From NCBI GenBank assembly GCA_903825415.1, contig CAIKAN010000014.1, positions 1 through 45,370 on the forward strand: a stretch of 45,370 bases of DNA, given 5' to 3'. The stretch's first letter is position 1. Each line of letters opens with the position of its first letter. Below are positions 7,567 to 25,205 of the stretch, in pieces. The position numbers and the translations under genes are program-made. The stretch comes from an uncultured bacterium (GTDB lineage: Bacteria > Patescibacteriota > Minisyncoccia > Phycocordibacterales > PALSA-1337). Below the pieces are notes generated by a model. It saw nothing but the letters and a program-made list of their open reading frames with translations. It was not told the DNA's origin and did no database searches.

Positions 7567-7641
7567 CAGGACATATTTATTTGTTCTTGTGGACTTGTGC
7601 GAATCATCTTGCGCGGTAAAATTATACCAGTGTGATAAATA

Positions 7642-8118: not shown

Positions 8119-8131
8119 CACAATGTCAATA

Positions 8132-8159
8132 TTGACTATTCCTGTGCATTTGCTAGGGT
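8132..8159 (+). promoter_or_regulatory. Candidate rpoB promoter
   Basis: TTGACT-16-TAGGGT with extended TG. Confidence 0.5.
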
Positions 8160-8336
8160 TCTACCAACTTCGCAGATTGAGTTCTGCCCGACTAGCGGAG
8201 GATTACAAGGCTCCCAACTAATCCTACCCGTGCATATCATCACTTTTTAGTGATCAATTCGTGACTCCGTCCAAAAAACGGGCTTTTTGTGTGACCGATC
8301 GATATTAGGGAATTGAGTTAGGTTGAAGACGTAATT

Positions 8337-8477
8337 AATTTTCAATTTACAAATTCCAATTTACAATCAATTTGCAAGGTTCAAATTTTCAATTATCAAA
8401 CGTGTGGCGATGATTTGAAAATTAATTTATTGGAAATTGATAATTGATTGTAAATTGGAATTTGAAAATTGAAAATT
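8337..8477. repeat. Family A AT-rich heptamer inverted-repeat element, copy 1
   Basis: AATTTTC AATTTAC AAATTCC AATTTAC ... GTAAATT GGAATTT GAAAATT GAAAATT. Confidence 0.9.
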
Positions 8478-8543
8478 CGGCCCATGCAGTCAGATGAATA
8501 TATTAATAACCACACGTTTTATTATTAACTTTACAAAATTAAC

Positions 8544-11500
8544 ATGACCACAATCCGTCCTAAGAAGTACTTCTCTCGCTATCAGGCACCTTTGTCACCG
8601 ATGCCGAACCTCGTTGAATCTCAATTGGCATCTTTTGATAGCTTGCTCGAGAACGGCATTCCAGCTTTGCTCAAGGAGTTCTCGCCGATCAAGGACTATG
8701 CTGACAAGAAATTCGAGCTGTCTATCGGCAATGCCGAGATCTCTCGTCCGAAGTTCGACGAGCACTATGCCAAGTTCAACAAGTTGAACTATGAAGGGCA
8801 GATCAAGGTGACAGTCACCTTGAAGAACAAGTCCTTGAATGTGGTCAAGGAACAGGAGATGTTCCTGGCTGATTTTCCCCTGATGACGGATCATGGGACA
8901 TTCATCATCAATGGCGTCGAGCGCGTGATCGTGCCTCAATTGGCGCGCTCATTTGGCGTATTCTTCACTTCTAGCGATGTGCGCGGCAAGAACTATTTCG
9001 GGGCCAAGATTATCCCTGCTCGTGGAGTTTGGATGGAGCTCGAAACGGATCTGGATGGAACAATGTATTGCCGCATCGATCGCAAGAGGAAGTTCCCCAT
9101 AACCTCGCTCATCCGCATTCTCGGGGCAGGGACGAACGAACAGATGGTCGCTCTCTTCAAAGATGATGAGAATTCCAAGAAAGCTATTGAGATGACTCTG
9201 GCCAAAGACCATGCCAAGACCATCGATGATTCATATATAGAGATACACAAGCGCTTGCGTGACGGCGATCTCGCTACAGCCGATAATGCCCGCTCTTTCA
9301 TTCAGGCCATCTTGAGCGCAGAGCGATACGATATCTCTCGTGTCGGCCGTTTTCGTTTCAATAAGCGCTTCGAGAAGCCCATGGACGAGAAGTCTCTCGA
9401 ACAACGCACTATCTCTCTTGATGATATCGCGACGATCGTGAAGCATGTCGTGACCTTGAGCGTCACTCCTGACATGCAGCCTGATGATATCGATCACCTC
9501 GGCTCTCGCCGCGTCAGATATGTAGGCGAGCTCATAGAGCAGAGGATACGTCTCGGCCTCACTCAGATGAAGAGGAATATCCAGGACAAAATGTCCACGA
9601 TCGAGCCTGATATCACTCTACCTGTCTCTTTCATATATCCACGTCCTCTCCAGGCCAGGATCAAGGAATTCTTCAGCACCAACCAGCTCTCGCAATTCAT
9701 GCAGCAGTCCAATGCCCTCGATGAGATCGAGCATCTTCGCACGCTTTCGGCTCTTGGTCCTGGCGGTCTATCGCGCGAGCGTGCCGGCTTCGAAGTCCGC
9801 GACGTCCATCCGTCTCACTACGGCCGCCTTTGCCCTATCCACACCCCTGAAGGCCCGAACATCGGTCTAGTCTTGCGCCTCACTACTTACGCTCGCATCA
9901 ATGATTTCGGCATGATCGAGACTCCTTATGCCAAGGTCAAGAAAGGAGTGGTCACCAACGATATCACCTACATGAATGCCCTTGAGGAAGAGAATTTCCG
10001 CATCGCTCACGCCGCCACTCCTCGAGATGAAAATGGCATGATCACTATCTCTGAAGCGGAAGTCCGCATCAATGGCAAGCCGGCGATGGCCACTAAAGAT
10101 GAGATCGATTATATCGACGTAGCCGCCAATCAAGCTTTCTCTATCGCGACTTCGCTCATCCCGTTCTTGAATCACGATGACGCCAACCGCGCTTTGATGG
10201 GATCGAACATGCAGAAACAAGCTACGCCTTGTCTCGTCCCTGAAGCTCCGATCGTCGCTACCGGTATGGAGCGCAAAGCTATCCTCGATACTGGCCGTGT
10301 AGTCGTCGCTCCTGAAGATGGAGAGATCGTCACTGTCGATGCCAAGAAGATCATCATGAAAGGCAAGAGCGGACGCGCCACTCAATTCAATCTCATCCTC
10401 TTCTCTCGAACAAATGGTTTTACCGCTTTCCATCAGCGCCCAGTCGTCTCCATCGGAGACAAGGTCAAGAAGGGGGATGTGCTGGCCGATACTTCGACTT
10501 CTGAGAATGGTGAGATCGCTCTCGGTCACAATTCCTTGGTGGCTTTCATGTCATGGTCTGGTTCCAACTACGAGGACGCCATCATCCTCTCTGAAAGAGT
10601 CGTCAAGAATGCCAAGTGGAGCTCTATCCATATCGAGGAGTTTGTAGTCAATGTCCGCGATACCAAGCTCGGCCCTGAAGTCACGACTTGCGATATCCCT
10701 AACGTAGGAGAAGGCAAGCTCAAGAATCTCACAGAAGAGGGCATTGTGCGCGTAGGCGCCGAAGTCCGTCAGGGAGATATCCTCGTGGGCAAGATCTGCC
10801 CGAAGGGAGAGACTCAGCTCACTCCGGAAGAGCGCTTGCTCCGCTCGATATTCGGAGAGAAGGCCCGCGATGTGAAAGATACGTCCAAGAGGATGGAGAA
10901 TGGCAAGCGCGGACGCATCATCTCTGTCAAAGTCTTCTCTCGCGAGAAGGGAGACAAACTGGAGTCTGGAATTATCAAGAAGATCTATATCGAAGTCGCT
11001 CAGGTCCGTAACGTCTCGGTCGGAGACAAGATGGCCGGACGCCACGGCAACAAGGGTGTCATCTCCAAGATCCTTCCTGAGGAAGATATGCCGTACATGG
11101 AAGATGGAACGCCTATCGATGTCATCCTCACTCCTCTCGGCGTGCCTTCACGTATGAACCTCGGTCAGATCCTTGAATTGCACCTCGGCCTCGCTGCCAA
11201 TGCTCTCGGATATCAAGCTATCGTCCCTCCTTTCATGGGAGCTTCCGATGCTGAGATCAAAGAAGAGCTCAAGAAAGCCGGCTATGATACTTCAGGCAAA
11301 ATGAAGCTGCGCGACGGCCGCACCGGCGAGCATTTCCATCAGCCTATCGCTGTCGGTTATATGTACATCATGAAGCTTCACCACATGGTGGAAGACAAGA
11401 TCCATATGCGCTCGATCGGTCCTTACTCTCTCATCACTCAGCAGCCTCTCGGCGGAAAGGCACAAGGAGGAGGACAGCGCTTCGGAGAAATGGAAGTCTG

Positions 11501-11720
11501 GGCTTTGCTCGGTCATGGCGCCGCCCATACTCTGCGCGAAATACTTACGGTGAAATCAGACGATATACTTGGCCGCTCACAGACCTTCGACGCTATCGTC
11601 AAAGGCGAGCGCATGAAAGTTCCGAACTTGCCTGCTTCGTTCAATGTTCTATTGAAGACACTCCGCGGTTTGGCCTTGAATGTGGAGCTGGTCAAGAGGG
11701 GACAAGTTGAGGAAGAATAG
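8544..11720 (+). CDS. rpoB: RNA polymerase beta subunit
   Basis: FIINGVERV, HYGRLCPIHTPEGPNIGL, GDKMAGRHGNKG, GGQRFGEMEVW. Confidence 0.99.
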   Translation: MTTIRPKKYFSRYQAPLSPMPNLVESQLASFDSLLENGIPALLKEFSPIKDYADKKFELSIGNAEISRPKFDEHYAKFNKLNYEGQIKVTVTLKNKSLNVVKEQEMFLADFPLMTDHGTFIINGVERVIVPQLARSFGVFFTSSDVRGKNYFGAKIIPARGVWMELETDLDGTMYCRIDRKRKFPITSLIRILGAGTNEQMVALFKDDENSKKAIEMTLAKDHAKTIDDSYIEIHKRLRDGDLATADNARSFIQAILSAERYDISRVGRFRFNKRFEKPMDEKSLEQRTISLDDIATIVKHVVTLSVTPDMQPDDIDHLGSRRVRYVGELIEQRIRLGLTQMKRNIQDKMSTIEPDITLPVSFIYPRPLQARIKEFFSTNQLSQFMQQSNALDEIEHLRTLSALGPGGLSRERAGFEVRDVHPSHYGRLCPIHTPEGPNIGLVLRLTTYARINDFGMIETPYAKVKKGVVTNDITYMNALEEENFRIAHAATPRDENGMITISEAEVRINGKPAMATKDEIDYIDVAANQAFSIATSLIPFLNHDDANRALMGSNMQKQATPCLVPEAPIVATGMERKAILDTGRVVVAPEDGEIVTVDAKKIIMKGKSGRATQFNLILFSRTNGFTAFHQRPVVSIGDKVKKGDVLADTSTSENGEIALGHNSLVAFMSWSGSNYEDAIILSERVVKNAKWSSIHIEEFVVNVRDTKLGPEVTTCDIPNVGEGKLKNLTEEGIVRVGAEVRQGDILVGKICPKGETQLTPEERLLRSIFGEKARDVKDTSKRMENGKRGRIISVKVFSREKGDKLESGIIKKIYIEVAQVRNVSVGDKMAGRHGNKGVISKILPEEDMPYMEDGTPIDVILTPLGVPSRMNLGQILELHLGLAANALGYQAIVPPFMGASDAEIKEELKKAGYDTSGKMKLRDGRTGEHFHQPIAVGYMYIMKLHHMVEDKIHMRSIGPYSLITQQPLGGKAQGGGQRFGEMEVWALLGHGAAHTLREILTVKSDDILGRSQTFDAIVKGERMKVPNLPASFNVLLKTLRGLALNVELVKRGQVEEE

Positions 11721-11739
11721 ATTTTGTGTATTGATTTTA

Positions 11740-11790
11740 AATCAAAAATCAAATATCAAAAATGAAATATACAAATGAAAAATCAAAAAT
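11740..11790 (+). repeat. AATCAAA-type heptamer array overlapping the start of the gene between rpoB and rpoC
   Basis: AATCAAA AATCAAA TATCAAA AATGAAA TATACA AATGAAA AATCAAA. Confidence 0.75.
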
Positions 11791-12355
11791 AGGGGCGAAT
11801 CTCCAAGGAGGTTCAATCATGCCGGCCGTTATTGCGGTTGTGGCTTTGCTGATCATCAGCGGCGTAACGTACTGGGCTGTGACAAATTCAAAGAGAGGTC
11901 CCATTGAAGTCTTTATAGACCCGAGTCATATTGCCACATCGACTACGGCGACTTCAACTTCTCAAAATCAGGATCAGACTGAAGCAGTGCCTGTGATCAC
12001 TTCCATCAATCCTTCCTCAGGTCCTCTTGGAACCGTTGTGACTATTCAAGGCAAGAATCTTTCCGGATTTGAAGGTGATCTGAAAGCATATTTTGTCAGG
12101 AAAGATGGAGATATCATAACCTTGACTGATACCTTCGGTGATTATACGAAGACAGCAGGAAATCTGATCAAGGTCTCAGTTAAAATTCCTTGTCCTACCC
12201 CGGGAGACTATCGAGGCAATACTGGCGTAGCGCTCTCTCCTTGCGATAGCACTAGCTCCGAGCTCGCTCCGGGGAATTATGAGGTGTATGCCAAGCCTTG
12301 GGGCAAGGAGAGCAATAGGGTGAAGTTCACGGTCAACGATTATGTAAATTATTAA
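11762..12355 (+). CDS. Membrane-anchored IPT/TIG-like protein with pilin-like N-terminal helix
   Basis: QGGSIMPAVIAVVALLIISG TM; PVITSINPSSGPLGTVVTIQGKNL is an IPT/TIG signature. Confidence 0.8.
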   Translation: MKYTNEKSKIGANLQGGSIMPAVIAVVALLIISGVTYWAVTNSKRGPIEVFIDPSHIATSTTATSTSQNQDQTEAVPVITSINPSSGPLGTVVTIQGKNLSGFEGDLKAYFVRKDGDIITLTDTFGDYTKTAGNLIKVSVKIPCPTPGDYRGNTGVALSPCDSTSSELAPGNYEVYAKPWGKESNRVKFTVNDYVNY

Positions 12356-12385
12356 AGATTACCAGCCGCAATTAATAACAAAACC

Positions 12386-15300
12386 ATGCAAACAATAACA
12401 ACAAAGAAACAGTACGATCCACAGGACTTCGATATCGTGAAGCTGACCTTGGCTTCGCCTGACAAGATCATCGAATGGTCGTATGGGGAAGTCACTAAGC
12501 CGGAGACGATCAACTACAGGACGCAGAGGAGCGAGAAGAGCGGCCTCTTCGACGAGAGGATCTTCGGTCCGGATCGCGATTTCGAATGTTATTGCGGCAA
12601 ATATCGCGGCATCCGCTACAAGGGCATAGTCTGCGAGAAATGCGGCGTGGAGATCACCCGATCCATAGTTCGACGTGAGCGCATGGGCCACATCGAGCTC
12701 GCTTCGCCGGTCTCCCACATCTGGTTCCTCCGTAGCGTCCCTTCAAGGATCGGCTTGATCCTCGGCATGACTTCATCCGATCTCGAGAAGGTCGTCTACT
12801 TCGCCGGTTATATGGTCACCAAGGTCAATCAAGCTGAAAAGGACAAATTCTCAAAGGAGCTAGATAGTGAATACAAGGCCAAGGTCAAATCTGCGCAAGA
12901 TGACAAGACCAAGGAAGCTCTGAAAGAGCTTGTCTTGAATGCCAGGAAGGAGATCGAGACCATCCTCGAAGGATTCGTCATGGACGAAGTCACATATCAT
13001 AAATATGCCGTGAGATATGGCGCGATATTCGAGGCCAAGATAGGCGCTGAAGCCATATATGACATTTTGAAGAATGTAGATCTCGCCAAGCTCAAGGTCG
13101 AGCTTGAGAAAGAGTACGATGCTTCCGGAGCGGCCGACAAAGAAAAACTGGCCAAGAGGCTCTCTCTGGTCAAACAGATGATAAAATCTGGAGTCCGTCC
13201 TGAATGGATGTTTCTTACGAAGATCCCAGTCATCCCGCCTGGTTTGCGCCCGATGGTCGCCTTGGAAGGAGGACGCTTCGCTACTTCCGATGTGAACGAT
13301 TTGTATCGCCGTGTCATCAATCGCAACAATCGTCTATTGAAATTGAAGGAGATCAGTGCCCCTGAAGTCATTCTCCGTAATGAGAAGCGCATTCTCCAGG
13401 AAGCTGTTGACGCCTTGATTGACAACTCTATCCGCCACAGCTCTTCCGCTGGTGCAGCCGCTATTGCTGCCCAGAAGAGGGCTTTGAAGTCTCTGTCGGA
13501 CGGTTTGAAGTCCAAGAGGGGTCTCTTCCGACAGAATCTTCTTGGAAAGCGCGTAGACTATTCAGGTCGTTCGGTGATCGTCGTGGGTCCAGAATTGAAG
13601 ATCGATGAATGTGGTATGCCCAAACATATGGCCCTTGAATTGTTCCGACCTTTCGTCATCTCTGGCCTTTTGAAAAGGGAATTGTCATATAACATCAGAG
13701 GAGCCAATCGTCTGATTGACGATGGAGCTAAGGAGGTCTGGGAGATCCTAGAAGAGGTTATCAAGGGCAAATATGTGCTTCTGAATCGTGCTCCTACTTT
13801 GCACCGCCTGGGCATTCAAGCCTTCAGGCCGATCTTGACCGAAGGAAACGCTATCAAAGTACACCCGCTCGTCTGTACCGCTTTCAACGCCGACTTCGAT
13901 GGAGATCAGATGGCCGTTCACGTACCGCTCTCTCCGGAAGCTCAGCTCGAAGCCAAAGAGATCATGGCCGCCGACAAGAATATCTTGAAGCCTGGCAACA
14001 ATGATCCGACCGTCGTGGCAAAGATGCTAGATATCGTGCTCGGTTGTTTCTGGGTCACCAAGACTGTCGTAGGCGCCAAGGGAGAAGGCAAATATTTTGA
14101 ATCACCAGAAGCCGCAGTCCTCGCTCACAGCTTCGACGAGCTCGACCTGCGCGCCAAGATCAAGATCCTCGCCCCTGTCAATGTGAAGTACGCTGCTTTC
14201 AAAGGCAAGCTTTTTGACACTACGGCCGGACGCGTTCTCATGAACGATATATTGCCGGATGATTATCCTTTCATCAATGAAGAGGTCGGTCGCAAGCGCT
14301 TGGGTATCATTATCGATGACATGATCACTATTCGTGGCGCTGCCTTTGTTGCCCCTATTCTCGACCAGATCAAGACTTTCGGTTTTGGATTCGCGACTAC
14401 TTCAGGGACGACTTGGGGCATTGACGATATCATGGTCCCTGAAGCCAAGAAAGATATTATCATTGAGGCCAAGAAGAAAGCCGAGCATATCACGGTTCAA
14501 TTCAGCGAGGGCTTGCTCACAGAGGAAGAGCGCATCAGGAAGCATATCGAAGTCTGGCAGAAAGCCAAGAGCGATGTGGAAAAAGCTATCCCTCAATCTC
14601 TCGACAAGAATGGTTCCGTCTACGACATGTTCACTTCTGGGGCTCGCGGATCGCTCTCTCAGATCACTCAAATGGCCGGTATGAAGGGTCTCATCGCATC
14701 AGTCTCAGGAACCGTGGAATTCCCGATCTTGTCCTGTTCAAAGGAAGGTCTGACCCCTATCGAATATTTCATCACCACTCACGGCTCTCGTAAGGGTCTA
14801 TCCGACACGGCCTTGAACACTGCCAAAGCTGGATATCTGACACGCAAACTGTTCGTGGTCGCCCAGGACGTGGTCGTTTCAGAGGAAGACTGCGGAACGA
14901 AAGACAGTATCGTCATCAAGAAGCAGACTGCTTCGGGCATGAATATCCCTCTATCCAAGAATATCCGCGGTCGTGTCACCGCTGAAGATGCGAAGACTGC
15001 CGACGGCAAGATCCTTTTCAAGAAAGGTCATATCATCACCAAAGCCGATGCCACACAGATCGAAGATGCCGGTATCCATGAATTGCGCGTACGTTCGCCT
15101 CTTTCATGCAAGACTATCCGAGGCGTTTGCGCGCAGTGCTATGGTCTAGACCTTGGTAAGAATAGCTTGGTCGCACTCGGCGAAGCAGTCGGAACGGTCG
15201 CTGCTCAAGCCATCGGCGAGCCTGGTACGCAGCTCACAATGAGAACCTTCCACGCTGGAGGAGCCGCGGCTCAAGGCGGAGACATCACCATGGGTCTGCC

Positions 15301-16054
15301 TCGCGTCGAGGAGATCTTCGAGAAGCGCCGTCCCAAGAATCCGGCCGTGGTCGCTACCGCTACCGGTGTGATCACCGAGGTCAAGGATATGGGCAAGGAG
15401 AAATTGATCCGCCTCTTGCCGGAACTGGATGAGAAGAGCAAGGGCAAGAAAGCTGCCGAGATAGAATATGTCTTCCCGTATCGCAGGACTACTCTCATCA
15501 GGACAGGCGATCATGTGAAGAGGGGAGACCTTCTCACTGACGGCTCAGCTGATATCGATGAGGTCTTCGAATATGGCGGCGAAGAGCGCGCCAAGGATTA
15601 TGTCATCACCGAAGTCGGTAAGATCTACGAATTGCAGGGCGAGACGGTCTCGCGAAAGCATATCGAGATCATCGTGAAGCAGATGTTCTCGCGCCGCCGC
15701 GTTCTCGATGGCGGAGCTACGAATCTCACGGAAGGTATGGTCGTCGACGATATCCAGCTCTCTGAAGAGAATGAATTGGCCAAGAAAGAGGGGGGCGTGC
15801 CTATCAAGGCAGAGAAGATCGTCATGGGTATCACTGATACCTCTCTCACAAGGAAGAGCTTCCTTTCAGCCGCTTCATTCCAGCACACTACCCGCGTCCT
15901 TATCTCCAACGCTGTCCGCGGCGCTGAAGACGATCTCACCGGTCTCATGGAGAATGTCATCATCGGTCGTCTAGTCCCAGCTGGCTCAGGTTTCCCTGGA
16001 TCGCCAAAGAAGGCTATGGTAGATGCCATTGCGCCGAAGGAGGGGAGCTTGTAG
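12386..16054 (+). CDS. rpoC: RNA polymerase beta-prime subunit
   Basis: NADFDGD catalytic motif, CYCGKY...CEKCGVE zinc finger, GEPGTQLTMRTFH. Confidence 0.99.
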   Translation: MQTITTKKQYDPQDFDIVKLTLASPDKIIEWSYGEVTKPETINYRTQRSEKSGLFDERIFGPDRDFECYCGKYRGIRYKGIVCEKCGVEITRSIVRRERMGHIELASPVSHIWFLRSVPSRIGLILGMTSSDLEKVVYFAGYMVTKVNQAEKDKFSKELDSEYKAKVKSAQDDKTKEALKELVLNARKEIETILEGFVMDEVTYHKYAVRYGAIFEAKIGAEAIYDILKNVDLAKLKVELEKEYDASGAADKEKLAKRLSLVKQMIKSGVRPEWMFLTKIPVIPPGLRPMVALEGGRFATSDVNDLYRRVINRNNRLLKLKEISAPEVILRNEKRILQEAVDALIDNSIRHSSSAGAAAIAAQKRALKSLSDGLKSKRGLFRQNLLGKRVDYSGRSVIVVGPELKIDECGMPKHMALELFRPFVISGLLKRELSYNIRGANRLIDDGAKEVWEILEEVIKGKYVLLNRAPTLHRLGIQAFRPILTEGNAIKVHPLVCTAFNADFDGDQMAVHVPLSPEAQLEAKEIMAADKNILKPGNNDPTVVAKMLDIVLGCFWVTKTVVGAKGEGKYFESPEAAVLAHSFDELDLRAKIKILAPVNVKYAAFKGKLFDTTAGRVLMNDILPDDYPFINEEVGRKRLGIIIDDMITIRGAAFVAPILDQIKTFGFGFATTSGTTWGIDDIMVPEAKKDIIIEAKKKAEHITVQFSEGLLTEEERIRKHIEVWQKAKSDVEKAIPQSLDKNGSVYDMFTSGARGSLSQITQMAGMKGLIASVSGTVEFPILSCSKEGLTPIEYFITTHGSRKGLSDTALNTAKAGYLTRKLFVVAQDVVVSEEDCGTKDSIVIKKQTASGMNIPLSKNIRGRVTAEDAKTADGKILFKKGHIITKADATQIEDAGIHELRVRSPLSCKTIRGVCAQCYGLDLGKNSLVALGEAVGTVAAQAIGEPGTQLTMRTFHAGGAAAQGGDITMGLPRVEEIFEKRRPKNPAVVATATGVITEVKDMGKEKLIRLLPELDEKSKGKKAAEIEYVFPYRRTTLIRTGDHVKRGDLLTDGSADIDEVFEYGGEERAKDYVITEVGKIYELQGETVSRKHIEIIVKQMFSRRRVLDGGATNLTEGMVVDDIQLSEENELAKKEGGVPIKAEKIVMGITDTSLTRKSFLSAASFQHTTRVLISNAVRGAEDDLTGLMENVIIGRLVPAGSGFPGSPKKAMVDAIAPKEGSL

Positions 16055-16074
16055 GAGTCGATTATTTATCTGAC

Positions 16075-16107
16075 AAAACAACCCGCTAGAGATAGCTGGT
16101 TGTTTTG
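16075..16107 (+). terminator. Terminator after rpoC
   Basis: aaaacaacc-cgcta...tagc-tggttgtttt. Confidence 0.7.
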
Positions 16108-16186
16108 TACATGAATTTTCCCTACTTCGCTCTTGCAGAGCTCCGCGGGGCAAGCAAATTCCAATTTACAATCAATTTTCCAATTA
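16108..16186. repeat. Family A half element (copy 2) with nested family G element (16120-16154)
   Basis: tacatgaattttc[cctacttcgctc...ggggcaag]caaattccaatttacaatc. Confidence 0.8.
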
Positions 16187-16254
16187 ATTGGGAGGCGATT
16201 GAAGAGAAAATAATAAGTGCGTCTTTTCATTAATTGTATTAGTATAAGTAGATT

Positions 16255-18069: not shown

Positions 18070-18104
18070 TTGTTTTGGTCACCGAAATATGCTATATATT
18101 CACC

Positions 18105-18317
18105 ATGACCACCAAAGCTATGGAAAAGACTATCAGGATTCTATCAAAAGAAGTCAACACGCTTCGTTCATTTTTCATTGATGCGATAAACAGCAGAGAT
18201 GATGAAGGCGCATATAAGGCCGTTTTCGTGAGGGAAGTGTTGAAGGCTGCAAAGCAGAAGGCAGCATTTCAATACTCAGGTAAGGGATCTTTGCTACAGC
18301 AGATCAAGGCTCTATGA
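18105..18317 (+). CDS. Putative antitoxin
   Basis: Small ORF overlapping the toxin start (ATGA); start ATG 18105 assumed. Confidence 0.65.
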   Translation: MTTKAMEKTIRILSKEVNTLRSFFIDAINSRDDEGAYKAVFVREVLKAAKQKAAFQYSGKGSLLQQIKAL

Positions 18318-18574
18318 AGATAGTCTATTCAAAAGATTTCATTAAGCAAGCTTCGACTCTCCCAAAGAAAGCTCAAGAAATGTTGGATGTCTCCATGCAT
18401 GTCTTATCAAGAAATCCCTTTTATCCGACTCTGCATACCAAGAATTTGAAAGGAGAGTTGAGTCGGATGTTTTCATTTCGGATAACGAGGGACTGGCGTG
18501 TTATTTTTGTATTTGAAGATAATGACACGATTAGGCTGGTGAAAATAGGTAATAGGAAGGATATCTATAGATAG
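18314..18574 (+). CDS. RelE/ParE (YafQ-like) toxin
   Basis: IVYSKDFIKQ...LHTKNLKG...FSFRITRDWRVIF...IGNRKDIYR. Confidence 0.85.
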   Translation: MKIVYSKDFIKQASTLPKKAQEMLDVSMHVLSRNPFYPTLHTKNLKGELSRMFSFRITRDWRVIFVFEDNDTIRLVKIGNRKDIYR

Positions 18575-18655
18575 CTCTTCAGAACAATCACCTGAAAATT
18601 CTGTATAAAAAATACAGCGCACCGTGATGGTGCGCGCTAGCCGTTGTTTGGCCGG

Positions 18656-18829
18656 TCATTTGCGGAATCTCTTCCTTGGTTTGGGTGGGAAGACTTCTTC
18701 AACATATCTTGGTGAGCTCCTGAAGACTTGTGACAATGGAGCTAAGAAAGTGAACGGCTTTCTGTGTGGCCATTCTCTTCCGCTTCGCAGATAACCAGCC
18801 GTTGCAGCCAAACCTATGGGTATTTTCAT
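18656..18829 (-). CDS. Small orphan protein (57 aa), below ORF-track cutoff
   Basis: MKIPIGLAATAGYLRSG...KPRKRFRK; AAAGG upstream, TGn-TACCAT, minus-strand terminator at about 18607-18635. Confidence 0.5.
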   Translation of the reverse strand: MKIPIGLAATAGYLRSGREWPHRKPFTFLAPLSQVFRSSPRYVEEVFPPKPRKRFRK

Positions 18830-18926
18830 ATTGTGCCTTTGGTGTGCTTTTTGAATATGGTATCACATGACTTCATTTGCAAAAAGCACTCTTTATAAAT
18901 CCTCCCCAATACCTTATACTCTCTCT

Positions 18927-20792
18927 ATGAATCGCAATGTTGTAGACCAGATAAAGGCCCGATTGCAGATAGAAGACGTCATCGGCTCCTATGTGAAGCT
19001 CGAGCATGCCGGCAAATCGCTGAAGGCCAAATGCCCGTTTCATAATGAGAAAAGCGCATCCTTTTTCGTTTCACCAGATAGGGGAGGATACTACTGTTTC
19101 GGCTGCGGCGCTAAGGGAGATATTTTCACTTTTGTGGAGCAATTCGAGGGACTAGATTTCCGAGGAGCTTTGAAGGTTCTTGCGGAGAAGGCAGGAGTGC
19201 CATTGGTTTTCGATCAGAAGGCGGATGGAGAGCGAGATAGGCTTTACGCTGTAATGGAGGAAGCGGCTAAATACTTTGAGGCGCAGTTAATTAATTCAAA
19301 AGAGGCAACTGAATATGTGAATGGGCGTGGCATCAATGATTCAACCAAGAAAGAATTTCGAATTGGCTGGGCGCCTGACGCTTGGAGGAATCTTTCTGTT
19401 TACTTGAAAGGAAAAGGATTCAATGAATCAGCGATGGAGAAAGCAGGATTAGTGAAGAAGAAAGAGGTTGAGCAATCCGTTGAGGCGAGAAAGGTCGGAG
19501 AGTCGCCCGATAGGGCGATCTCGTCGACCTTTGTCGCCGATAAAAGGATTGCTCAACCGGTCGCAAGTAATTCTAATTCCAACTGTTATGATCGCTTTCG
19601 AGGAAGAATAATGTTTCCAATCTTCGATTCAAGCGGTCGCGTTATCGCATTCTCTGGGCGGATCTTGAAAGCTGATGATCAGAGTGCTAAATACATTAAT
19701 AGTCCCGATACTCCTTTGTATGATAAATCCCAAGTCCTTTATGGATTGGATAAGGCCAAGAATGAGATCAGGCGCATGAATTATTCCATCTTCGTAGAAG
19801 GGCAGATGGATTTGGTCATGTCACATCAGGCGGGGATAAAGAATACTGTGGCTGCTTCCGGTACGGCTATGGGGGATGAAGTGGCGAATGAAGCGGGAAT
19901 AGTCAGCAATCTCGGTCTTGTTAGAAGGCTTTCTCCTAATGTCATAATCGCCTTCGATTCTGATTCGGCGGGTAAGAAGGCTTCTATGAGAGCTGCGGGC
20001 ATAGCTTTGTCTCTAGGGATGGATGTGAAGATTGCCGAGATCGTTGGCGGTAAAGATCCCGCTGATCTGGTTAAGGTGAATGTAGAGAATTGGAAAACTG
20101 TTTTGAGAAATGCCAAGCCGATAGTCGAATTCGAGCTGAACAATGTTTTGGCTGATAACCCGGATCCGCGTAAATTACCACGCGCTTTGCGAGAACGAGT
20201 TTTCCCATTCTTGGTAAAGATAGATAGCTCCATGGACAAGGCCCATTTCGTGAAGATGATCGCTGATCGGGCCAAGATTACCGAGAGCGCCGTTTGGGAA
20301 GACTTGAAGAAGATGCCGATTTCGGGAGGTCCGACCTCCAGAGCTCCGAGTGATTCGGGAGGTCCGACCTCCAGAAATCAACCAGCCGGCGGCCACATCG
20401 ACCTTGTCTCTCGCCGCATATTCGGCTTGCTCGCTCTGATGGATAAAAAGATCAAGGAAGAAGCCGAAAAATATCGCGAGCTGATGAAAAAGATCGCTGG
20501 TGACCGCTATGAAGATCATGTGAAAAGATCATCTGCGACCATGGTCGACCATGTATTCGAAGCTGAGGCTTTATATGGAGACGATGAGCCTTCATGGCAT
20601 CGCCATATGAAAGAGCTTCTTTTCAATTATGAGATAGATATGATAAATGATGAGCTTGTGAAGACGATGCAGGAATTGAAAGCCGCTGAACACGCCAATG
20701 ATCAAGGTTTGGTCATAGAATTGGCAAAGAAATGCCAGGCATTATCTATCAGGAAAGCGGAAGTGGCGAAGAAAGGAAGGGACGCGCTATAA
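18927..20792 (+). CDS. dnaG: DNA primase
   Basis: CPFHNEK...CFGCG zinc finger, DRFRGRIMFPI, KYINSPDT, FVEGQMD, AFDSDSAG; start ATG 18927. Confidence 0.97.
   Translation: MNRNVVDQIKARLQIEDVIGSYVKLEHAGKSLKAKCPFHNEKSASFFVSPDRGGYYCFGCGAKGDIFTFVEQFEGLDFRGALKVLAEKAGVPLVFDQKADGERDRLYAVMEEAAKYFEAQLINSKEATEYVNGRGINDSTKKEFRIGWAPDAWRNLSVYLKGKGFNESAMEKAGLVKKKEVEQSVEARKVGESPDRAISSTFVADKRIAQPVASNSNSNCYDRFRGRIMFPIFDSSGRVIAFSGRILKADDQSAKYINSPDTPLYDKSQVLYGLDKAKNEIRRMNYSIFVEGQMDLVMSHQAGIKNTVAASGTAMGDEVANEAGIVSNLGLVRRLSPNVIIAFDSDSAGKKASMRAAGIALSLGMDVKIAEIVGGKDPADLVKVNVENWKTVLRNAKPIVEFELNNVLADNPDPRKLPRALRERVFPFLVKIDSSMDKAHFVKMIADRAKITESAVWEDLKKMPISGGPTSRAPSDSGGPTSRNQPAGGHIDLVSRRIFGLLALMDKKIKEEAEKYRELMKKIAGDRYEDHVKRSSATMVDHVFEAEALYGDDEPSWHRHMKELLFNYEIDMINDELVKTMQELKAAEHANDQGLVIELAKKCQALSIRKAEVAKKGRDAL
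19466..19558. repeat. 93-bp palindromic element inserted in frame in dnaG
   Basis: GGTTGAGCAATCC/GGATTGCTCAACC arms with two nested stems. Confidence 0.85.
20325..20372. repeat. Family E palindrome pair (GGAGGTCCGACCTCC x2) inside dnaG
   Basis: 20325-20339 and 20358-20372. Confidence 0.9.
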
Positions 20793-20799
20793 TACTCCC

Positions 20800-21528
20800 A
20801 TGCAGACATACGCCATCCGTTCCAATGCGATGTTCCTCGACCGGCCCTTTCGTGAGTATGTGCTCACGATTAAGGATCTGCCGTCGGAAGAGAAGCCTCG
20901 CGAAAAAATCATAGCTCAGGGTCCCGAATCATTGAGTATTCGAGAGCTTTTGGCTTTAGTATTGATCAATGGGACGGTCAAAGAAGATGTCTTGGAAATG
21001 ACCAATCGCATCATCCGTGAATATGGCGAAAAGAGCATATTATCGGAGAAGAGCGCCGAGAAGCTTTCCAAAGACGTCGATATCCCCATAGTCAAAGCCT
21101 GCCAGATCGTGGCTTGTGGGGAATTGGGCCGTCGCTTCTTTGATCGGAGCCAGAATGGCTTTACGACGATCCGTAGCGCCAAAGACGCGTATGAATATCT
21201 GCAGGATATGCGCAATCTGCCAAAAGAGCATCTTAGAGGCTTGTATCTGAACAGCCACAATAGGGTCATCCGTGATGAAGTCATTTCTATCGGTACCATC
21301 AATTCCAATATGATCCATCCCCGCGAAGTTTTCAGACCAGCCATAGAATCTAACGCTTCCGCCGTAGTCTTGGCGCACAATCATCCTTCGGGAGAAGCTG
21401 TCGCCAGTCCGGAAGATATCGAGATCACCAAGCAGCTCATCCAAGCGGGCAAAATCCTAGGCATCTCCTTGCTCGACCATGTCATCATCACCAAAGATGC
21501 TTTTTCAAGCATCGAAGCGAACTATTAA
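20800..21528 (+). CDS. radC: RadC-like JAB domain protein
   Basis: EKPREK, HPREVF, LAHNHPSG, SPEDI, LLDHVII. Confidence 0.95.
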   Translation: MQTYAIRSNAMFLDRPFREYVLTIKDLPSEEKPREKIIAQGPESLSIRELLALVLINGTVKEDVLEMTNRIIREYGEKSILSEKSAEKLSKDVDIPIVKACQIVACGELGRRFFDRSQNGFTTIRSAKDAYEYLQDMRNLPKEHLRGLYLNSHNRVIRDEVISIGTINSNMIHPREVFRPAIESNASAVVLAHNHPSGEAVASPEDIEITKQLIQAGKILGISLLDHVIITKDAFSSIEANY

Positions 21529-21591
21529 GCAGTTGAAGGAATTTTAACTTAAATATAGACATTGAAGTTCTAGCGGGGTGATATCTCCTAG

Positions 21592-21800
21592 AATTTTCAA
21601 TTTACAAATTCCAATTTACAATGAATTTACAATGTTCAAATTATCAACTATCAGATACGGGTATGTATCCTGTTTGAAAATTTCTCAATTGAAAATTCAT
21701 TGTAAATTGGAATTTGCCTGCCCTGCGAAGCTCCGAGGTAACTTGTGGTGAGCTAGTCGAACCACGAGGAGCGAAGTAGGGAAAATTGAAAATTCATGTA
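21592..21800. repeat. Family A element, copy 3, with nested G element (21717-21781) that itself holds a hairpin (21742-21768)
   Basis: Right arm interrupted at gaatttg|aaaatt by a 65-bp GC-rich insert. Confidence 0.9.
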
Positions 21801-21862
21801 AATATCTTCTCGAAAAGAATCATATCTTTGTGTTTAGTTAGAATCCTTCAATCTCCAAAACA

Positions 21863-22180
21863 ATGTTACGCGATTACACTATCACCTCGCCGTCTTTGTG
21901 CGGCATTCTTAGCCATGAATTAGTAGAGTATAATAATCTCCGCAGGCCGGAGAATATAGAGAGGATATTCGATCGGCCGTCAAAACATAGACTTACTGAA
22001 GAAGAAAGCACGACAAGGCGCAAAGCCCTTGAAGAATACTTCCATGACCTATACGGCATCCTTATGAAAGAGATCTCCGAATTTTCGATCGCCGCTGAAG
22101 CTCTACCGGATAAAGCAGTTAGATTGCAGGCCATATTACAGGAGTTCGTTAAGGTGAAGGGACTGCTTACTGAGAAGTGA
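21863..22180 (+). CDS. Hypothetical helical protein
   Basis: 105-aa ORF between A and B elements. Confidence 0.55.
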   Translation: MLRDYTITSPSLCGILSHELVEYNNLRRPENIERIFDRPSKHRLTEEESTTRRKALEEYFHDLYGILMKEISEFSIAAEALPDKAVRLQAILQEFVKVKGLLTEK

Positions 22181-22194
22181 GATAGTAGGGCCTG

Positions 22195-22267
22195 GCCACT
22201 AGTGATTAGCCACTAGTATCTTGCTGCTGACGTTCACTAGTGGCTAAACCCTAGTGGCTAGTCGCTT
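22195..22267. repeat. Family B heptamer palindrome, copy 2
   Basis: CCACTAG TGATTAG CCACTAG ... CTAGTGG CTAAACC CTAGTGG CTAGTCG. Confidence 0.9.
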
Positions 22268-22308
22268 TGCCATTTCTGGATTTCCGCCTTTTGCTCTATA
22301 ATACCCTC

Positions 22309-23640
22309 ATGACTTCCCGTGACTATTTCAAAGGCAAAAGGATAGCGATGATAGGCTTAGGCCCTCATGGAGAAATGATCGACGATGCTCGATTTCTGAT
22401 TAAGAGCGGGGCGTTATTGTCTATATATGATCTTCGCAGCGAAGCCAGGCTGAAAAGCCATTTGGTCTTTTTAAGATCGGTCGGATTGGCCAATTATGTC
22501 TGCGGATCTATCCCAGCCGATGATCTGCTCGACATGGATATGATCATCCTATCGCATGAATATCCTCGCAATTCGCTATTTCTCAAACAAGCCCAAGAAA
22601 AGGGCGTGACTATCGAATACCCCGAGACTCTATTTTTCAAGCTTTCACCGCCTCTGACCTTGGTGGGAGTGATGGGATCTTGTGGTAAAGCAACCGTGCT
22701 CTCTATGCTTGCTCCTCTCCTCGAGTCTGTATGCGAATCACCGTCTGATCATGAGGCTCCTGCCCAGTCATGCTTTGTCGTAGACCCAGAGGCTAGGGGA
22801 GGCATCCTCTCTTTCCTGAAAAAAGCCCGAAATGGGGATATCATGCTCATGCGCATGACGGGGCTTATGATGAAAGAGCTCTATGGCATGAGGATCAGCC
22901 CTCAAGTGTCCGTCTTCACTACTGTGCCGTCTCCGGCGATGTACGATGAATCGCCGTTCGAGATATTGTCATATCAGACTTATAACAATTTCATAGTCGC
23001 GAGCGATGAGGTCATCGACGCGACTCGAGTATACAAGTTCGATAGCAAGGCCAAGATGCTGCGAACCAAGGCCACGATGGTTCCCTCAGAATGGGATTTC
23101 AAAGGGCGCTCTCATGATCGTGATAATGCCGCTTTGGCGCTTCAAGTAGCTAGGCTCTTCAAGGTGCCTGAAGAGAAGATCCAGGAGATCCTCGAGGCTT
23201 GGAAGCCTCTCAAGGGCAGATTGGAATTGGTGAAAAAGATCAAGAGCACGGAGTTTTATAACGATACAGCTTCAGTTTCTCCAGACGCGACGATCGCGGG
23301 GATGAGATCTCTCTCGACCGATAAAGATCTGGTTTTGATATTTGGTGGTGCTCAGAGCGGGTCTGATTACAAGGCATTCAGCGAAGTTTTGCCGAAGTAT
23401 GCGCATACCATGATCCTTTTACCTGGCAGCGGCACTATCCGGCATAGGAAGATGCTGCAAGGCCTAGATGGAATGGAGGTATTGTCAGTGCCATCGATCG
23501 AAGAAGCTGTGCTTTTGGCTCGGGAGAAGATCCATACTGGAGACAAGGTCCTATTCAGCCCAGGCTTTGATGCCGGTGGATTTGATGTTTCCAGAAAAGA
23601 GAGAGGAGAGAGGTTTGTGAGAGCGGTGAGATCGTTGTAA
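22309..23640 (+). CDS. MurD-like Mur ligase with degenerate active-site motifs
   Basis: FKGKRIAMIGLG, GSCGKATV, GRLELV, FYNDTAS, VLIFGG, VLFSPG; start ATG 22309. Confidence 0.85.
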   Translation: MTSRDYFKGKRIAMIGLGPHGEMIDDARFLIKSGALLSIYDLRSEARLKSHLVFLRSVGLANYVCGSIPADDLLDMDMIILSHEYPRNSLFLKQAQEKGVTIEYPETLFFKLSPPLTLVGVMGSCGKATVLSMLAPLLESVCESPSDHEAPAQSCFVVDPEARGGILSFLKKARNGDIMLMRMTGLMMKELYGMRISPQVSVFTTVPSPAMYDESPFEILSYQTYNNFIVASDEVIDATRVYKFDSKAKMLRTKATMVPSEWDFKGRSHDRDNAALALQVARLFKVPEEKIQEILEAWKPLKGRLELVKKIKSTEFYNDTASVSPDATIAGMRSLSTDKDLVLIFGGAQSGSDYKAFSEVLPKYAHTMILLPGSGTIRHRKMLQGLDGMEVLSVPSIEEAVLLAREKIHTGDKVLFSPGFDAGGFDVSRKERGERFVRAVRSL

Positions 23641-23648
23641 TGTAAAGT

Positions 23649-23760
23649 CGAATCACGTTAGCCGCGACCGTCGCAGGCAGCGACAAGTGGCGACTTTCGC
23701 GTAGCGAAGCGGAGCGAAACGAAGGCACTTGTCGTGCCGAGGAGGGAGCGAGGTAGTTTT
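23649..23760 (+). repeat. Family C structured element, copy 1
   Basis: Near-identical to the reverse complement of 44784-44896. Confidence 0.93.
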
Positions 23761-23765
23761 TCAAA

Positions 23766-24641
23766 TCAATCTCCGCATACCAAACACACCACCGCCCCCT
23801 CGATCTCATATCCCATATATACTGCCTGCATAGCTCCGACGATGGAGAGCGCGCTATTGTTCGATATTTGAAGATCGGTATGCTCTCCGACCAATTCAAG
23901 GGCTGCTTGGATATTCTCATTTGTTGCGCACCAAGCTTGACCGCCCGTTTTCTCTATCAAGGGAACAAGCATGTCTTTACGAAAAGCCGTCTGGTCTACT
24001 ATAGCGTCAGCGATCGATCTTTCGTCTGGAATATCGAATGTTTCGAAAGCATCAGCGATCTTGTGGCAAGAAGAGGTTTGAACGATATGCACTTGGGTCT
24101 TTAGTTTATTCTTCAGGAAATAGTCAGCCAGAGCTTGCGCCGTGGTCCCTGAAGATGTGCCTATGAAGACGGCTCCTAAGTTTTTTATCTCACATAATTC
24201 TTGCGCCAGTGATTCATATCCGATCAGGGCTAGGTCATCTGTAGATTGTCGCAAGCTCCGACAGCCTTCATTCGCCGCTTGAGTCAAGGCTTGAAGAGGC
24301 CGCTCTTTGGTAAGCACGCGTACATCGTCGTCCGTCAGTTTCATCAGCTTATCTTTCTTGTGCGGAGAGATATTATTCCCCACGAAGATGTCGAGAGTGA
24401 TAGGGGAATCCGCGCAGCTAGCATTTAGTTTATTTATGTACAAAGCGGCGGCCAAGGCTGCATTTCCTGAAGATGAAATGGCGAATCGTCGATCGCCATT
24501 CTTGATATAATGATCGATCATCACGGGAATAGATCGTCCCTTATGAGAGCCATACGGATGGAGGTCCTCGCGTTTGAAATATAGGTCAGACAGACCGATA
24601 GCTTTGCCTAATTCATCATGTTTTTCATGCGGAGTGATCAT
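23766..24641 (-). CDS. PLP-dependent fold-type II enzyme (threonine synthase-like)
   Basis: LYFKREDLHPYGSHKGR, SSSGNAALA, GTSSGTT. Confidence 0.9.
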   Translation of the reverse strand: MITPHEKHDELGKAIGLSDLYFKREDLHPYGSHKGRSIPVMIDHYIKNGDRRFAISSSGNAALAAALYINKLNASCADSPITLDIFVGNNISPHKKDKLMKLTDDDVRVLTKERPLQALTQAANEGCRSLRQSTDDLALIGYESLAQELCEIKNLGAVFIGTSSGTTAQALADYFLKNKLKTQVHIVQTSSCHKIADAFETFDIPDERSIADAIVDQTAFRKDMLVPLIEKTGGQAWCATNENIQAALELVGEHTDLQISNNSALSIVGAMQAVYMGYEIEGAVVCLVCGD

Positions 24642-24692
24642 GTGTATAGTCTACAGCCTAGTCCACAGGCTGGCAACGCTGCGGTTTTTTTG

Positions 24693-24826
24693 CTAAGATT
24701 CATGAGACTTAAGCATGCGGCATTTCTTCGTTGCTTCGCTCGTTTGCTCCCGCACTGTATTTACAATACAGTTTGGTCGCAAGCCTCGCTCGCGCCTCGA
24801 ACTGCATCCAAGTGTGTAAGTCCTAG
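24693..24826. repeat. Imperfect palindromic element (H)
   Basis: Central actgtat-ttaca-atacagt hairpin with flanking imperfect arms; GCTTCGC motif. Confidence 0.6.
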
Positions 24827-24858
24827 AAATTAATTTCCCCAAAATGATCCAAGATAAT

Positions 24859-25038
24859 ATGAAAAAACCGAATATGCTCTGTGTTTGCCCGGAATGCAAG
24901 AATGTCATAGACCTTTCTCGGTATCCTACTATCACCCCAGGAATGGTCATAGAATGCAATCACTGCGGTATGACCTTGCTCATCAAAGGATTTGATGGAG
25001 ATAATGTGAAGACGGAGATTGTGGATGAAGGGAAGTAG
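24859..25038 (+). CDS. LysW-like zinc-ribbon carrier protein
   Basis: CPEC...GMVIECNHCGMTL...; C-terminus DEGK instead of EDWGE. Confidence 0.75.
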   Translation: MKKPNMLCVCPECKNVIDLSRYPTITPGMVIECNHCGMTLLIKGFDGDNVKTEIVDEGK

Positions 25039-25045
25039 GCGAAGT

Positions 25046-25204
25046 GTCATTTACACGAATTTTCAATTTTCAAATTCCAATTTTCAATCAATGTTCAATG
25101 ATCAAATTCTCAATTGACGCATCTATTAGCGATCGCTTGAAAATTCATTCATTGTAAATTCATTGAAAATTGGAATTTGAAAATTGAAAATTCGTGTAAA
25201 TGAC
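25046..25204. repeat. Family A element, copy 4 (43-bp perfect terminal IR)
   Basis: gtcatttacacgaattttcaattttcaaattccaattttcaat and its exact reverse complement. Confidence 0.95.
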
Positions 25205-25205
25205 G

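Follow-up and report, generated by a model that had tools for sequence, protein, structure and literature searches.

The present analysis concerns a family of hairpin-forming DNA elements, here termed family A, in the genome of an uncultured bacterium of the Patescibacteriota (lineage PALSA-1337). The window, i.e., the whole stretch of DNA that was analysed (45,370 nt), is the whole of contig C14 of a genome assembly of 1.05 Mb, which comprises 99 contigs and is rated 94.5% complete. Four family A copies are present in the window, and a repeat search of the window found all of them at the positions given in an earlier note on this DNA (Table 1). These copies are almost certainly gene-less or half members of a cassette of the intervening sequence (IVS) type, the intact form of which carries a gene for a four-helix-bundle protein, because contig C58 contains a complete copy of family A that surrounds a gene of the protein family PF05635, and a profile search of the genome revealed no such gene in the window. 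The stem is present and the open reading frame (ORF) is absent in the window copies, and both are present in the C58 copy.

Table 1. Positions of family A copies and of other repeat features; positions without contig number refer to the window.
Feature	Position	Strand	Context
Copy 1, gene-less hairpin	8337-8477	no strand	spacer upstream of rpoB; cores 8337-8367 and 8447-8477
Copy 2, half copy, one arm	16108-16191	+	53 nt downstream of rpoC
Copy 3, gene-less hairpin	21592-21806	no strand	between radC and a 105-aa ORF; left core 21592-21622
Copy 4, gene-less hairpin	25046-25204	no strand	abuts the end of a Mur-ligase gene (25206-26645, minus strand)
Intact cassette	C58:17346-17826	ORF on minus strand	paired family A arms (57 nt) and PF05635/TIGR02436 gene
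Deleted remnant	C17:13004-13332		paired family A arms; both ORF ends kept, middle lost
Nested GC-rich hairpin, long form (CCCTACTTCGCT ... GAGCTTCGCAGGGCAGG)	21717-21781	-	right arm of copy 3, junction immediately before CAAATTCC
Family C heptamer array (ATCAAAAATGAAAAATCAAATATCAAAAATACAAAGG type)	11718-11793	+	between rpoB and a TIG-domain ORF; about 11 loci in the genome
Family E heptamer tract (CAAAACGCAAAACTTAAAAC)	7096-7142	+	inside a trmD-like ORF (6769-7566)
Family H inverted repeat, CACTAGT-type heptamers	22187-22266	no strand	spacer before a Mur-ligase-like gene at 22267

Family A in the window and in the genome

The genome was searched with a profile built from five arms, and 47 arms were found at E < 1e-3, distributed over 20 of the 99 contigs. 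These comprise 16 pairs that face inward and span 126-481 nt, and 15 single arms, several of which are situated at contig ends. This amounts to about 31 loci, one of them with an intact gene, one with an internally deleted gene, and the others gene-less. The proposal of the earlier note that the copies in the window are non-autonomous members of a dispersed family was thus borne out. Each arm opens with a 31-nt core, AATTTTC AATTTWC AAATTCC AATTTWC AAT (W, A or T). The 31-nt string AATTTTCAATTTWCAAATTCCAATTTWCAAT had 40 matches in the genome when up to three mismatches were allowed, and the reversed string had none. Inward of the core the arm sequence varies, yet it keeps the 7-nt period, with CAA recurring every 7 nt in the inner arms. 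The number of heptamers varies as well, e.g., a copy on C84 has one additional AATTTTC and copy 2 has one heptamer fewer. The interiors of the copies all differ from each other, and therefore they are not recent copies of one miniature master.

The arms of copy 1 (8337-8400 and 8414-8477) are 64 nt long and 81% complementary, a weaker outer inverted repeat reaches to about 8327-8488, and the element lies 55 nt upstream of rpoB (8544-11720). Copy 3 has arms of 43 nt (21605-21647 and 21674-21716, 86% complementary), and a nested insert separates the inner portion of its right arm (21672-21716) from the outer portion (21782-21806). In copy 4 the cores are located at 25058-25088 and 25162-25192 within arms of 68 nt (25046-25113 and 25137-25204, 90% complementary). 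The alignment of these arms verified the claimed perfect inverted repeat of 43 bp, both arm rows being identical from GTCATT to CAAT; CAATG, the start-codon position of ORF-bearing copies, is kept in one arm. Copy 2 consists of an outer stub (TACATGAATTTT) that ends at 16119, a nested GC-rich hairpin (16120-16154), and the remainder of the arm from 16155 onward, which terminates in a palindromic tip (CCAATTAATTGG) at 16180-16191. A stretch of 24 nt in copy 2 (16155-16178) is 100% identical to copy 1, and this string of words is common to all four copies. Tandem Repeats Finder reported a period of 7 in every arm in the window and also at 7101-7133 and 11739-11790. RNA folding yielded very stable structures, with -78.3 kcal/mol (z = -15.0) for copy 4 and -53.8 kcal/mol (z = -7.6) for copy 1.

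The gene-bearing cassette

The ORF of the intact cassette on C58 encodes 120 amino acids, and its stop codon lies inside the inner 3' arm. The ORF without its last three residues was used as query (P0001). It matched PF05635 (E = 3.6e-15, 56.5 bits, cut-off 33.8) and TIGR02436 (E = 1.8e-21, 76.4 bits, cut-off 24), and a relative with known structure was found in the PDB (2rld_A, E = 5.4e-10). Judged by these matches, P0001 is predicted to be a four-helix-bundle "23S rRNA intervening-sequence protein" and a relative of Avd, a protein of diversity-generating retroelements (DGRs). In the copy on C17 the 5' 164 nt of the ORF are kept, 118 of which are identical to C58, and the 45-nt 3' end can be aligned as well; the C17 protein is 77% identical to that of C58 over residues 3-55 and has one TGA stop. 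A link of heptamer tracts with four-helix-bundle genes had been mentioned for other bacteria in the earlier note, which placed none in the window, and the C58 cassette and the C17 remnant confirmed it. Both pairs in this genome with a spacer of more than 250 nt enclose the homolog or its remnant, and the same is true for all three such pairs among 28 distinct external pairs. These three belong to the five external loci with a cargo homolog, i.e., L087, L108 (= L125), L112, L148 and L163, the proteins of which are 57-70% identical to P0001. No second gene was found between the arms of the five external ORF-bearing cassettes, the flanks of which were read.

In three of these five cassettes (L108, L148 and L163) the start codon straddles the inner edge of the core, the ATG being made up of the final core bases and a following G (...TTTTCAATG...), and the first codons are words of the inner arm. 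A TATAAT sequence is situated 8 nt upstream of the ATG in both C58 and C17. The G of the start codon is also kept, in one arm only, in three of the 12 pairs that were counted in this genome, with a fourth case at a contig end (C49); we read this G of gene-less copies as a probable relic of a start codon. When the loops of the short copies were tested for remnants of the ORF, only C17 scored above all of its 100 shuffles. The loop of copy 1 reached a score of 23, compared to a null maximum of 24, at the 3' end of the ORF, which is suggestive only. Both neighbours could be called for 23 cassette genes, and 15 of these had the same direction as their neighbours, four were at a convergent junction and four were antisense to both.

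Matches to PF05635 were found at three places in the genome, on C29, C58 and C71. The gene on C71 is flanked by inverted repeats of AATAATC/AATAACC heptamers and the gene on C29 by CTCCTAA words. The latter (L014, C29:763-4080, with CTCCTAA-type heptamers on its flanks) is the best-scoring PF05635 gene of the genome (123.5 bits), and it lies in one open frame of at least 650 aa together with a downstream repeat protein, because the heptamers are read through without a stop. Homologs of P0001 were present in 31 of 92 congeneric genomes, with a best identity of 65%. Of the 30 loci that were returned 20 were analysed, and at 19 of them the gene was flanked by inverted repeats of 26-86 nt that consist mostly of 7-nt words.

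The proteins encoded between family A cores are 57-81% identical. For seven pairs of these genes the synonymous differences were saturated (pS 0.70-0.93) and the nonsynonymous differences were low (pN 0.10-0.24), and thus the cargo protein is under purifying selection and the cassettes are old. Every cargo cassette has one arm without any mismatch to the 31-nt core, and the detected partner arms have 0-4 mismatches. This leaves two readings, a very strong constraint on the sequence of the core or a reassortment of arms with cargo, and under each of them the recognised unit is the 31-nt core. The combination of such cargo with the same cores would also be expected if the hairpin were a pre-existing attachment or target site, into which four-helix-bundle genes enter or within which they are swapped, and gene-less copies would then be empty sites. 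In agreement with such a site, C17 and C58 share their arms, including the outer extension that is specific for this genome, yet their ORFs are 72% identical in DNA, GC-rich hairpins insert into arms at the same junction in three copies and in two different forms, and the gene-less loops lack a remnant of the ORF. However, the start and the first codons are built from the inner core edge and inner-arm words in three of five external cassettes, and therefore gene and arms look like one unit. Furthermore, C17 is a clear deletion intermediate with both ends of the ORF, only a single gene family was ever found between the arms, and the homologs have arms of their own at 19 of the 20 loci analysed. 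An attachment site is thus regarded as a rather unlikely alternative to a cassette in which gene and arms belong together.

The core in other phyla

The exact pattern of the core over 29 nt was found in 13 other species-representative genomes, i.e., two Parcubacteria, two Patescibacteria, Berkelbacteria, Paceibacterota, Levyibacteriota, Dojkabacteria, Moranbacteria, two further bacteria, and one metagenome-assembled genome (MAG) each of Verrucomicrobia subdivision 3, in which the flanks on the contig are GC-rich, and of Bdellovibrionales. Mis-binning is possible for these occurrences, because all of the genomes are MAGs. The exact core was also present in 76 metagenome contigs, and 15 of these are at least 95% identical to this genome over at least 500 nt. 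With these 15 near-identical contigs removed, 61 contigs unlike this genome remained, and the independent external loci were 74 in all. In viral contigs the search for the exact core gave 0 matches. The organism's sequence itself was found in freshwater and lake metagenomes of two studies.

At the external loci the identity outside of the core was at background level. The inverted repeat reaches only 0-1 nt past the core in 26 of the 28 distinct external pairs, and therefore the element ends at the outer edge of the core. In this genome the inverted repeat extends about 12-25 nt beyond the core, as GGGATGATATTTACWYG. This outer extension, which is specific to the copies of this genome, suggests a shared local ancestor or homogenisation.

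Arm covariation

The earlier note had described variants that are shared by both arms of a copy and differ between copies. At the fourth heptamer, both arms of copies 1 and 3 indeed read AATTTAC, and both arms of copy 4 read AATTTTC. The following word is, also as described, AATC in both arms of copy 1 and AATG in both arms of copy 3; in contrast, it is discordant in copy 4 (AATC/AATG), and this third site does not co-vary. In the alignment of 12 short copies 95.8% of the cells pair, and 2 of the 42 pairs co-vary, which are the two W positions. Eight cells with double changes were counted versus 4.1 +/- 1.2 in shuffles, and none of the 500 shuffles reached the observed value. At the W positions the arms agreed in 21 of 24 comparisons in this genome versus 14 of 34 in 17 independent external pairs (Fisher's exact p = 0.0004, a value that is overstated because copies within one genome are related). 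The inner arms showed no covariation (-15.6 kcal/mol for own and -15.5 kcal/mol for cross combinations, permutation p = 0.44).

Thus, the proposed covariation was retained for the two A/T positions in this genome, but neither for the inner arms nor for the external pairs. Arm covariation is local to this genome, and it may have originated by descent from symmetric masters or because paired arms correct each other. What the family conserves is the core sequence and not only its pairing. A templated-repeat process had also been considered, and nothing was found that points to one.

Genomic context and relatives

The surroundings of 25 family A sites were examined. All of these sites are situated between protein-coding ORFs, and none lies in a long ORF with the exception of two cases, namely the gene of the cassette itself and one ORF that overlaps an arm by 43 nt. 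The flanking genes are co-directional at 18 sites, divergent at three and convergent at two, and one side is missing at two sites; at most co-directional sites the gaps are 1-70 nt. All 25 sites are outside of rRNA genes, but a copy within an rRNA gene could exist, because no 23S/large subunit rRNA gene is contained in the assembly. A scan of the arms for promoters yielded weak hexamer pairs facing inward and outward (9 of 12 matches) at five sites, compared to 1.9 +/- 1.6 in shuffles. No terminator-like site was found in the C58 copy.

True family A elements were absent from the 60 relatives that were searched, 36 of which belong to the same genus; only plain runs of the AATTTTC type were found, in G005, G016 and G020. 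In a further relative, G090, gene-less hairpins of a sister family are present, which are composed of similar words in a different order. One of the latter (L075, C26:1550-1970) takes up the spacer between two genes, and its end coincides exactly with the downstream ATG (MTNFWQKF...); the gene that starts there may be secY. In the relatives G016 and G007 no counterpart of copy 1 was detected in the spacer, which is bordered by a conserved non-coding segment and by the beginning of rpoB. This segment of about 125 nt, at 8124-8247 of the window, precedes a terminator-like hairpin. Its identity in dozens of congeneric genomes amounts to 72-91%, above the value of about 75% for rpoB, and it has no match in Rfam. 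It may be an undescribed small RNA or leader.

These results bear on the possibility that family A elements are RNA elements selected by the host, e.g., processing or stability sites or attenuators, which are kept for neighbours of the rpoB/rpoC type, while the link to the gene is incidental. The tight fit between co-directional genes at 18 of 25 sites, the very stable stems and the weak promoter-like hexamers in the arms (five sites versus 1.9 +/- 1.6) are in accordance with such a role. However, family A is absent from the 60 relatives and from the rpoB leader of G016 and G007, and therefore the elements are dispensable for these operons. In addition, the C58 copy lacks a terminator-like site, and unrelated phyla have the exact core next to genes that are themselves unrelated, as would fit a mobile element and not a host regulator. 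It is therefore considered improbable that host selection explains the family.

Period-7 sequences and further heptamer families

Autocorrelation of the genome at different lags revealed that a period of 7 is not confined to family A. With at least 22 matches in 35 positions, 112 regions were found at lag 7, which sum up to about 6.6 kb, compared to 2-24 regions at lags 3-6 and 8-13 and 43 at lag 14. With at least 24 matches in 35 positions the numbers were 71, 0-7 and 21, respectively, and with 27 of 35 seven regions were found in the genome versus none in the shuffled genome. When the regions were sorted by eye, at least seven families with unrelated words could be discriminated, in agreement with the notion of the earlier note that several unrelated sequences share this period. 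Gene-bearing members are present in this genome for families A, F and G, and none was found for families B, C, D and E.

Ordinary heptamer microsatellites, which would have arisen in place by slippage of the polymerase and would not involve a mobile element, would be in line with some of these features. The number of heptamers varies in C84 and copy 2, plain (AATTTTC)n runs exist in G016 and G020, and slippage has been proposed as the cause of the excess of heptamers in bacteria (the portion consulted of PMC4692102). In contrast, the core of family A is a fixed order of four different words, which was found 40 times here and at 74 independent external loci, and it always occurs in an inverted pair or in half of one. 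This shared, non-repetitive order of words brings slippage close to refutation, and as an explanation for family A it is highly improbable.

Candidate partner genes

A shared gene of the HUH/Y1 or GIY-YIG type had been envisaged as a partner of the repeats, but none lies beside a family A copy. The sole match to Y1_Tnp was weak (25.2 bits) and is located on C94, a contig without a family A arm. Two matches to GIY-YIG were obtained, on C61 and in an open frame of 502 aa on C13, and neither is next to a family A copy. At the gathering score Rfam yielded nothing in the window except two tRNAs. At E <= 1, only models of plant miRNA precursors gave matches, on the hairpin of copy 1 and far below the cut-offs, and these matches were read as chance.

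The genome contains five genes for reverse transcriptases (C28:6095-6706, C94:3478-4089, C94:499-1164, C30:8123-8776 and C90:16857-17468). All five score under the cut-off for group II introns, and they are possibly of the DGR type. This raises the question whether the RNA of the cassette could be mobile via reverse transcription, with the Avd-like protein cooperating with one of these enzymes as in DGRs. The presence of five such genes (338-400 aa) in a genome of 1 Mb would be in line with this route, and so would be the lack of a target duplication, the homology of PF05635 proteins to the DGR protein Avd (as stated in the consulted part of PMC10053308), and a weak match of the C29 paralog to DivGenRetAVD (NF033474, 23 bits versus a cut-off of 80). 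Nevertheless, no reverse transcriptase gene adjoins any family A copy or any of the PF05635 genes (C58, C17, C71, C29:2263), the elements have two symmetric ends, unlike retroelements, and a second gene is lacking between the arms of five external cassettes. Mobility of the cassette by reverse transcription is thus quite improbable.

Nested hairpins and additional features of the window

A family of GC-rich hairpins (CCCTNCTTCGCY ... RGCTNCGNAGGGCAAG) occurs in short and long forms in the genome, with roughly 20 copies as counted by eye, e.g., at 16120-16154 and 21717-21781 in the window and at C28:54684-54748, C10:10315, C13:13933, C58:19974 and C50:3626. In three family A copies such a hairpin is inserted at the same junction, immediately before CAAATTCC; it has the short form in copy 2 and the long form in copy 3 and at C28:54684-54748. 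This suggests that the nesting is site-specific. In a metagenome contig that is unrelated (L112, near 2800), an arm of family A is likewise broken up by a GC-rich hairpin.

Several additional features of the window were observed. An ORF of 197 aa with a TIG/IPT domain (11762-12355) lies between rpoB and rpoC, and its first codons are inside the family C array. The family E tract is in frame with its trmD-like host ORF and may represent translated arm material. Arrays related to family H are present at C42:2969, C62:10620 and C88:7151. A 158-aa ORF without Pfam match (7642-8118) contains 2.2 tandem copies of a 63-nt unit (7733-7874, 98% matches). Between the genes for an ABC transporter and dnaG a small gene pair is situated (18066-18574), the second gene of which encodes 86 aa and has sub-threshold matches to toxins of the RelE/YafQ/YoeB type; it is likely a toxin-antitoxin pair. 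Inside the dnaG ORF a palindrome-containing word of 22 nt, TTCGGGAGGTCCGACCTCCAGA, is present in two exact copies 33 nt apart (20321-20375), and a similar word was found on C86 near 1100.

Discussion

On intervening sequences with an ORF in 23S rRNA genes, Ralph and McClelland 1993 and Afseth 1995 are cited in PMC4990558. Family A resembles the intervening sequences of Coxiella burnetii and Leptospira in several respects, as far as the consulted parts of the literature go. A terminal complementary stem encloses an ORF of the PF05635 family, which is the S23p ORF there and the C58 ORF here, and tandem heptamers, the number of which differs between strains there, are located beside the start of the ORF. 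In Coxiella these heptamers are GACAGAT, in two or three copies depending on the strain, and cleavage by RNase III takes place within the 28-bp stem, where the first tandem heptamer is located (the consulted part of PMC4990558). The rRNA elements have been termed selfish and their ORF can decay, which is also common to family A. Unlike them, family A is found in the intergenic spacers of protein-coding operons, it has about 31 loci in one genome, most of which are gene-less, and its arms are much longer, consist of heptamers throughout, and have a 31-nt core that is shared across phyla.

Dispersed heptamers have been described for Xanthomonas, which has arrays of GGGAATC with 70-75 convergent inverted pairs, and for Nostoc, with the repeat GGGGAYT (both in the consulted part of PMC4692102). 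These systems share with family A the intergenic arrays, the frequent occurrence as close inverted pairs, the lineage-specific words and the variable repeat number. In contrast to the AT-rich family A with its fixed order of different words, they are G-rich and were read as quadruplex-forming. A link to PF05635 is not drawn in the consulted part of that paper, in which the terms S23, 23S and four-helix occur 0 times. The view of the earlier note that the elements belong to an uncharacterised class can thus be upheld only in part, because the heptamers of intervening sequences and the inverted pairs of Xanthomonas had been published.

Family A is also reminiscent of miniature inverted-repeat transposable elements, since it is short, non-coding, multi-copy and intergenic, and has sharp terminal inverted repeats and one longer gene-bearing relative. 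It differs from them in that a target-site duplication is missing, the longer relative encodes a four-helix bundle of 120 aa and no known transposase, and the interiors are all different. The heptamers of Nostoc are said to be the STRR repeats of Mazel 1990. REP/REPIN elements are short palindromic intergenic repeats that are spread in trans by a single-copy RAYT gene (Y1 HUH type) and do not generate a target duplication. Unlike in REP/REPIN-RAYT systems, the partner gene of family A is inside of the repeat and encodes a four-helix bundle, and no Y1 gene is flanked by repeats. With DGRs family A shares a homologous four-helix-bundle fold and family (the consulted part of PMC10053308), but a reverse transcriptase gene is not adjacent and the gene is enclosed by inverted heptamer arms; the search for an adjacent reverse transcriptase beside the Avd-like gene, which did not extend to pairs of template and variable repeats, found none. 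In the literature searched no description of such cassettes outside of rRNA was found, nor any work on TIGR02436 or on an intervening sequence protein with heptamers, and PF05635 appeared only in the context of DGRs. For the combination of four-helix bundle, intervening sequence, inverted repeats and mobility, only the paper on Coxiella (PMC4990558) was relevant among the matches listed.

Taken as a whole, family A is probably best explained as the gene-less and half copies of a hairpin cassette of the IVS type, together with the mechanism that is proposed here. The mechanism itself is tentative. It combines three steps, i.e., the core as a cis site, cleavage of the stem by RNase III, and generation of gene-less copies by loss of the interior. 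The core would be read by its sequence, in a role similar to that of terminal inverted repeats in mobile elements. As reader, the cassette's own protein would be the best candidate, and it could act in trans on gene-less copies; no other component accompanies the arms from phylum to phylum. Upon transcription of the operon, RNase III, a gene for which is encoded in this genome, would cut the stem of 31-45 bp, as it does in intervening sequences of 23S rRNA. The cut would set the cargo RNA free and leave the flanking cistrons usable, and insertions in rpoBC and other operons would therefore be tolerated. Gene-less copies would arise mainly by loss of the interior in place, with C17 as intermediate. 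A more far-reaching proposition, which must be regarded as speculative and rather doubtful, is that the protein reads its own 31-nt core and that protein and arms form a self-contained mobile unit without a canonical transposase.

Several observations weigh against this explanation of family A. A step of mobility was not observed, a transposase is not present inside the cassette, and no nuclease or recombinase motif is known in the four-helix bundle of 120 aa. In-place loss of the interior is supported for C17 alone, because the loops of the short copies hold no significant remnant of the ORF. An exact empty site cannot be drawn, because the closest relatives, G016 and G007, are only about 75% identical in rpoB. 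In four public DNA runs that cover the region 7000-26500, short contigs stop at the elements and none joins across, and joints in such contigs link different family A copies. Target-site duplications were absent from 15 of the 28 distinct external pairs, and the remaining ones were 1 nt (4), 2 nt (7), 3 nt (1) and 4 nt (1) long, close to the lengths of the null expectation, under which 58% have none. With two covarying pairs, selection on the stem is only thinly supported, and at both W sites A.A or U.U mismatches are tolerated in the external pairs.

The same holds for the relation between protein and core. The external loci were ascertained by an exact match to the core, and the identity of the matched arm is thus partly given by construction; outside of this ascertainment are the core matches around such diverged cargo, the partner arms and the sharp boundary. 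Diverged cargo in identical arms could reflect reassortment of arms and cargo and not purifying selection on the arms. Homologs that are 52-65% identical to P0001 have quite different arms, with words unlike those of family A. A tree of 29 cargo proteins, from which the exact duplicates L113 and L125 and six distant rows (L066-L070, L072) were excluded, leaves 17 of 26 inner branches open and speaks neither for nor against a single origin of the proteins with family A arms. As a residue signature of these proteins, two columns separate five of the six proteins and fail for L112. A match of protein to core is thus not evident, on account of the homologs with other arms, the open tree and the missing signature.

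The proteins of the PF05635/TIGR02436 families are widespread and have been without a function since their discovery in intervening sequences of rRNA, and the dispersed heptamer repeats of bacteria are likewise unexplained. Family A ties both together in one small genome. The fixed 31-nt core and the small protein represent a defined DNA or RNA ligand and a defined candidate partner, and across phyla the core is retained exactly, whereas the cargo has reached saturation at its synonymous sites. Copies without a gene outnumber gene-bearing ones many-fold in this genome of about 1 Mb, including its rpoBC region, and the period-7 sequence, which totals about 6.6 kb and belongs to at least seven families, exemplifies that highly reduced genomes can bear a large load of elements. 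If the protein indeed reads its own core, such a unit would cross phyla, seed gene-less copies that are served in trans, and insulate itself in host transcripts via a stem that is cut by RNase III. It would then offer one common explanation for PF05635 proteins, the intervening sequences of 23S rRNA, and the heptamer repeats of bacteria.

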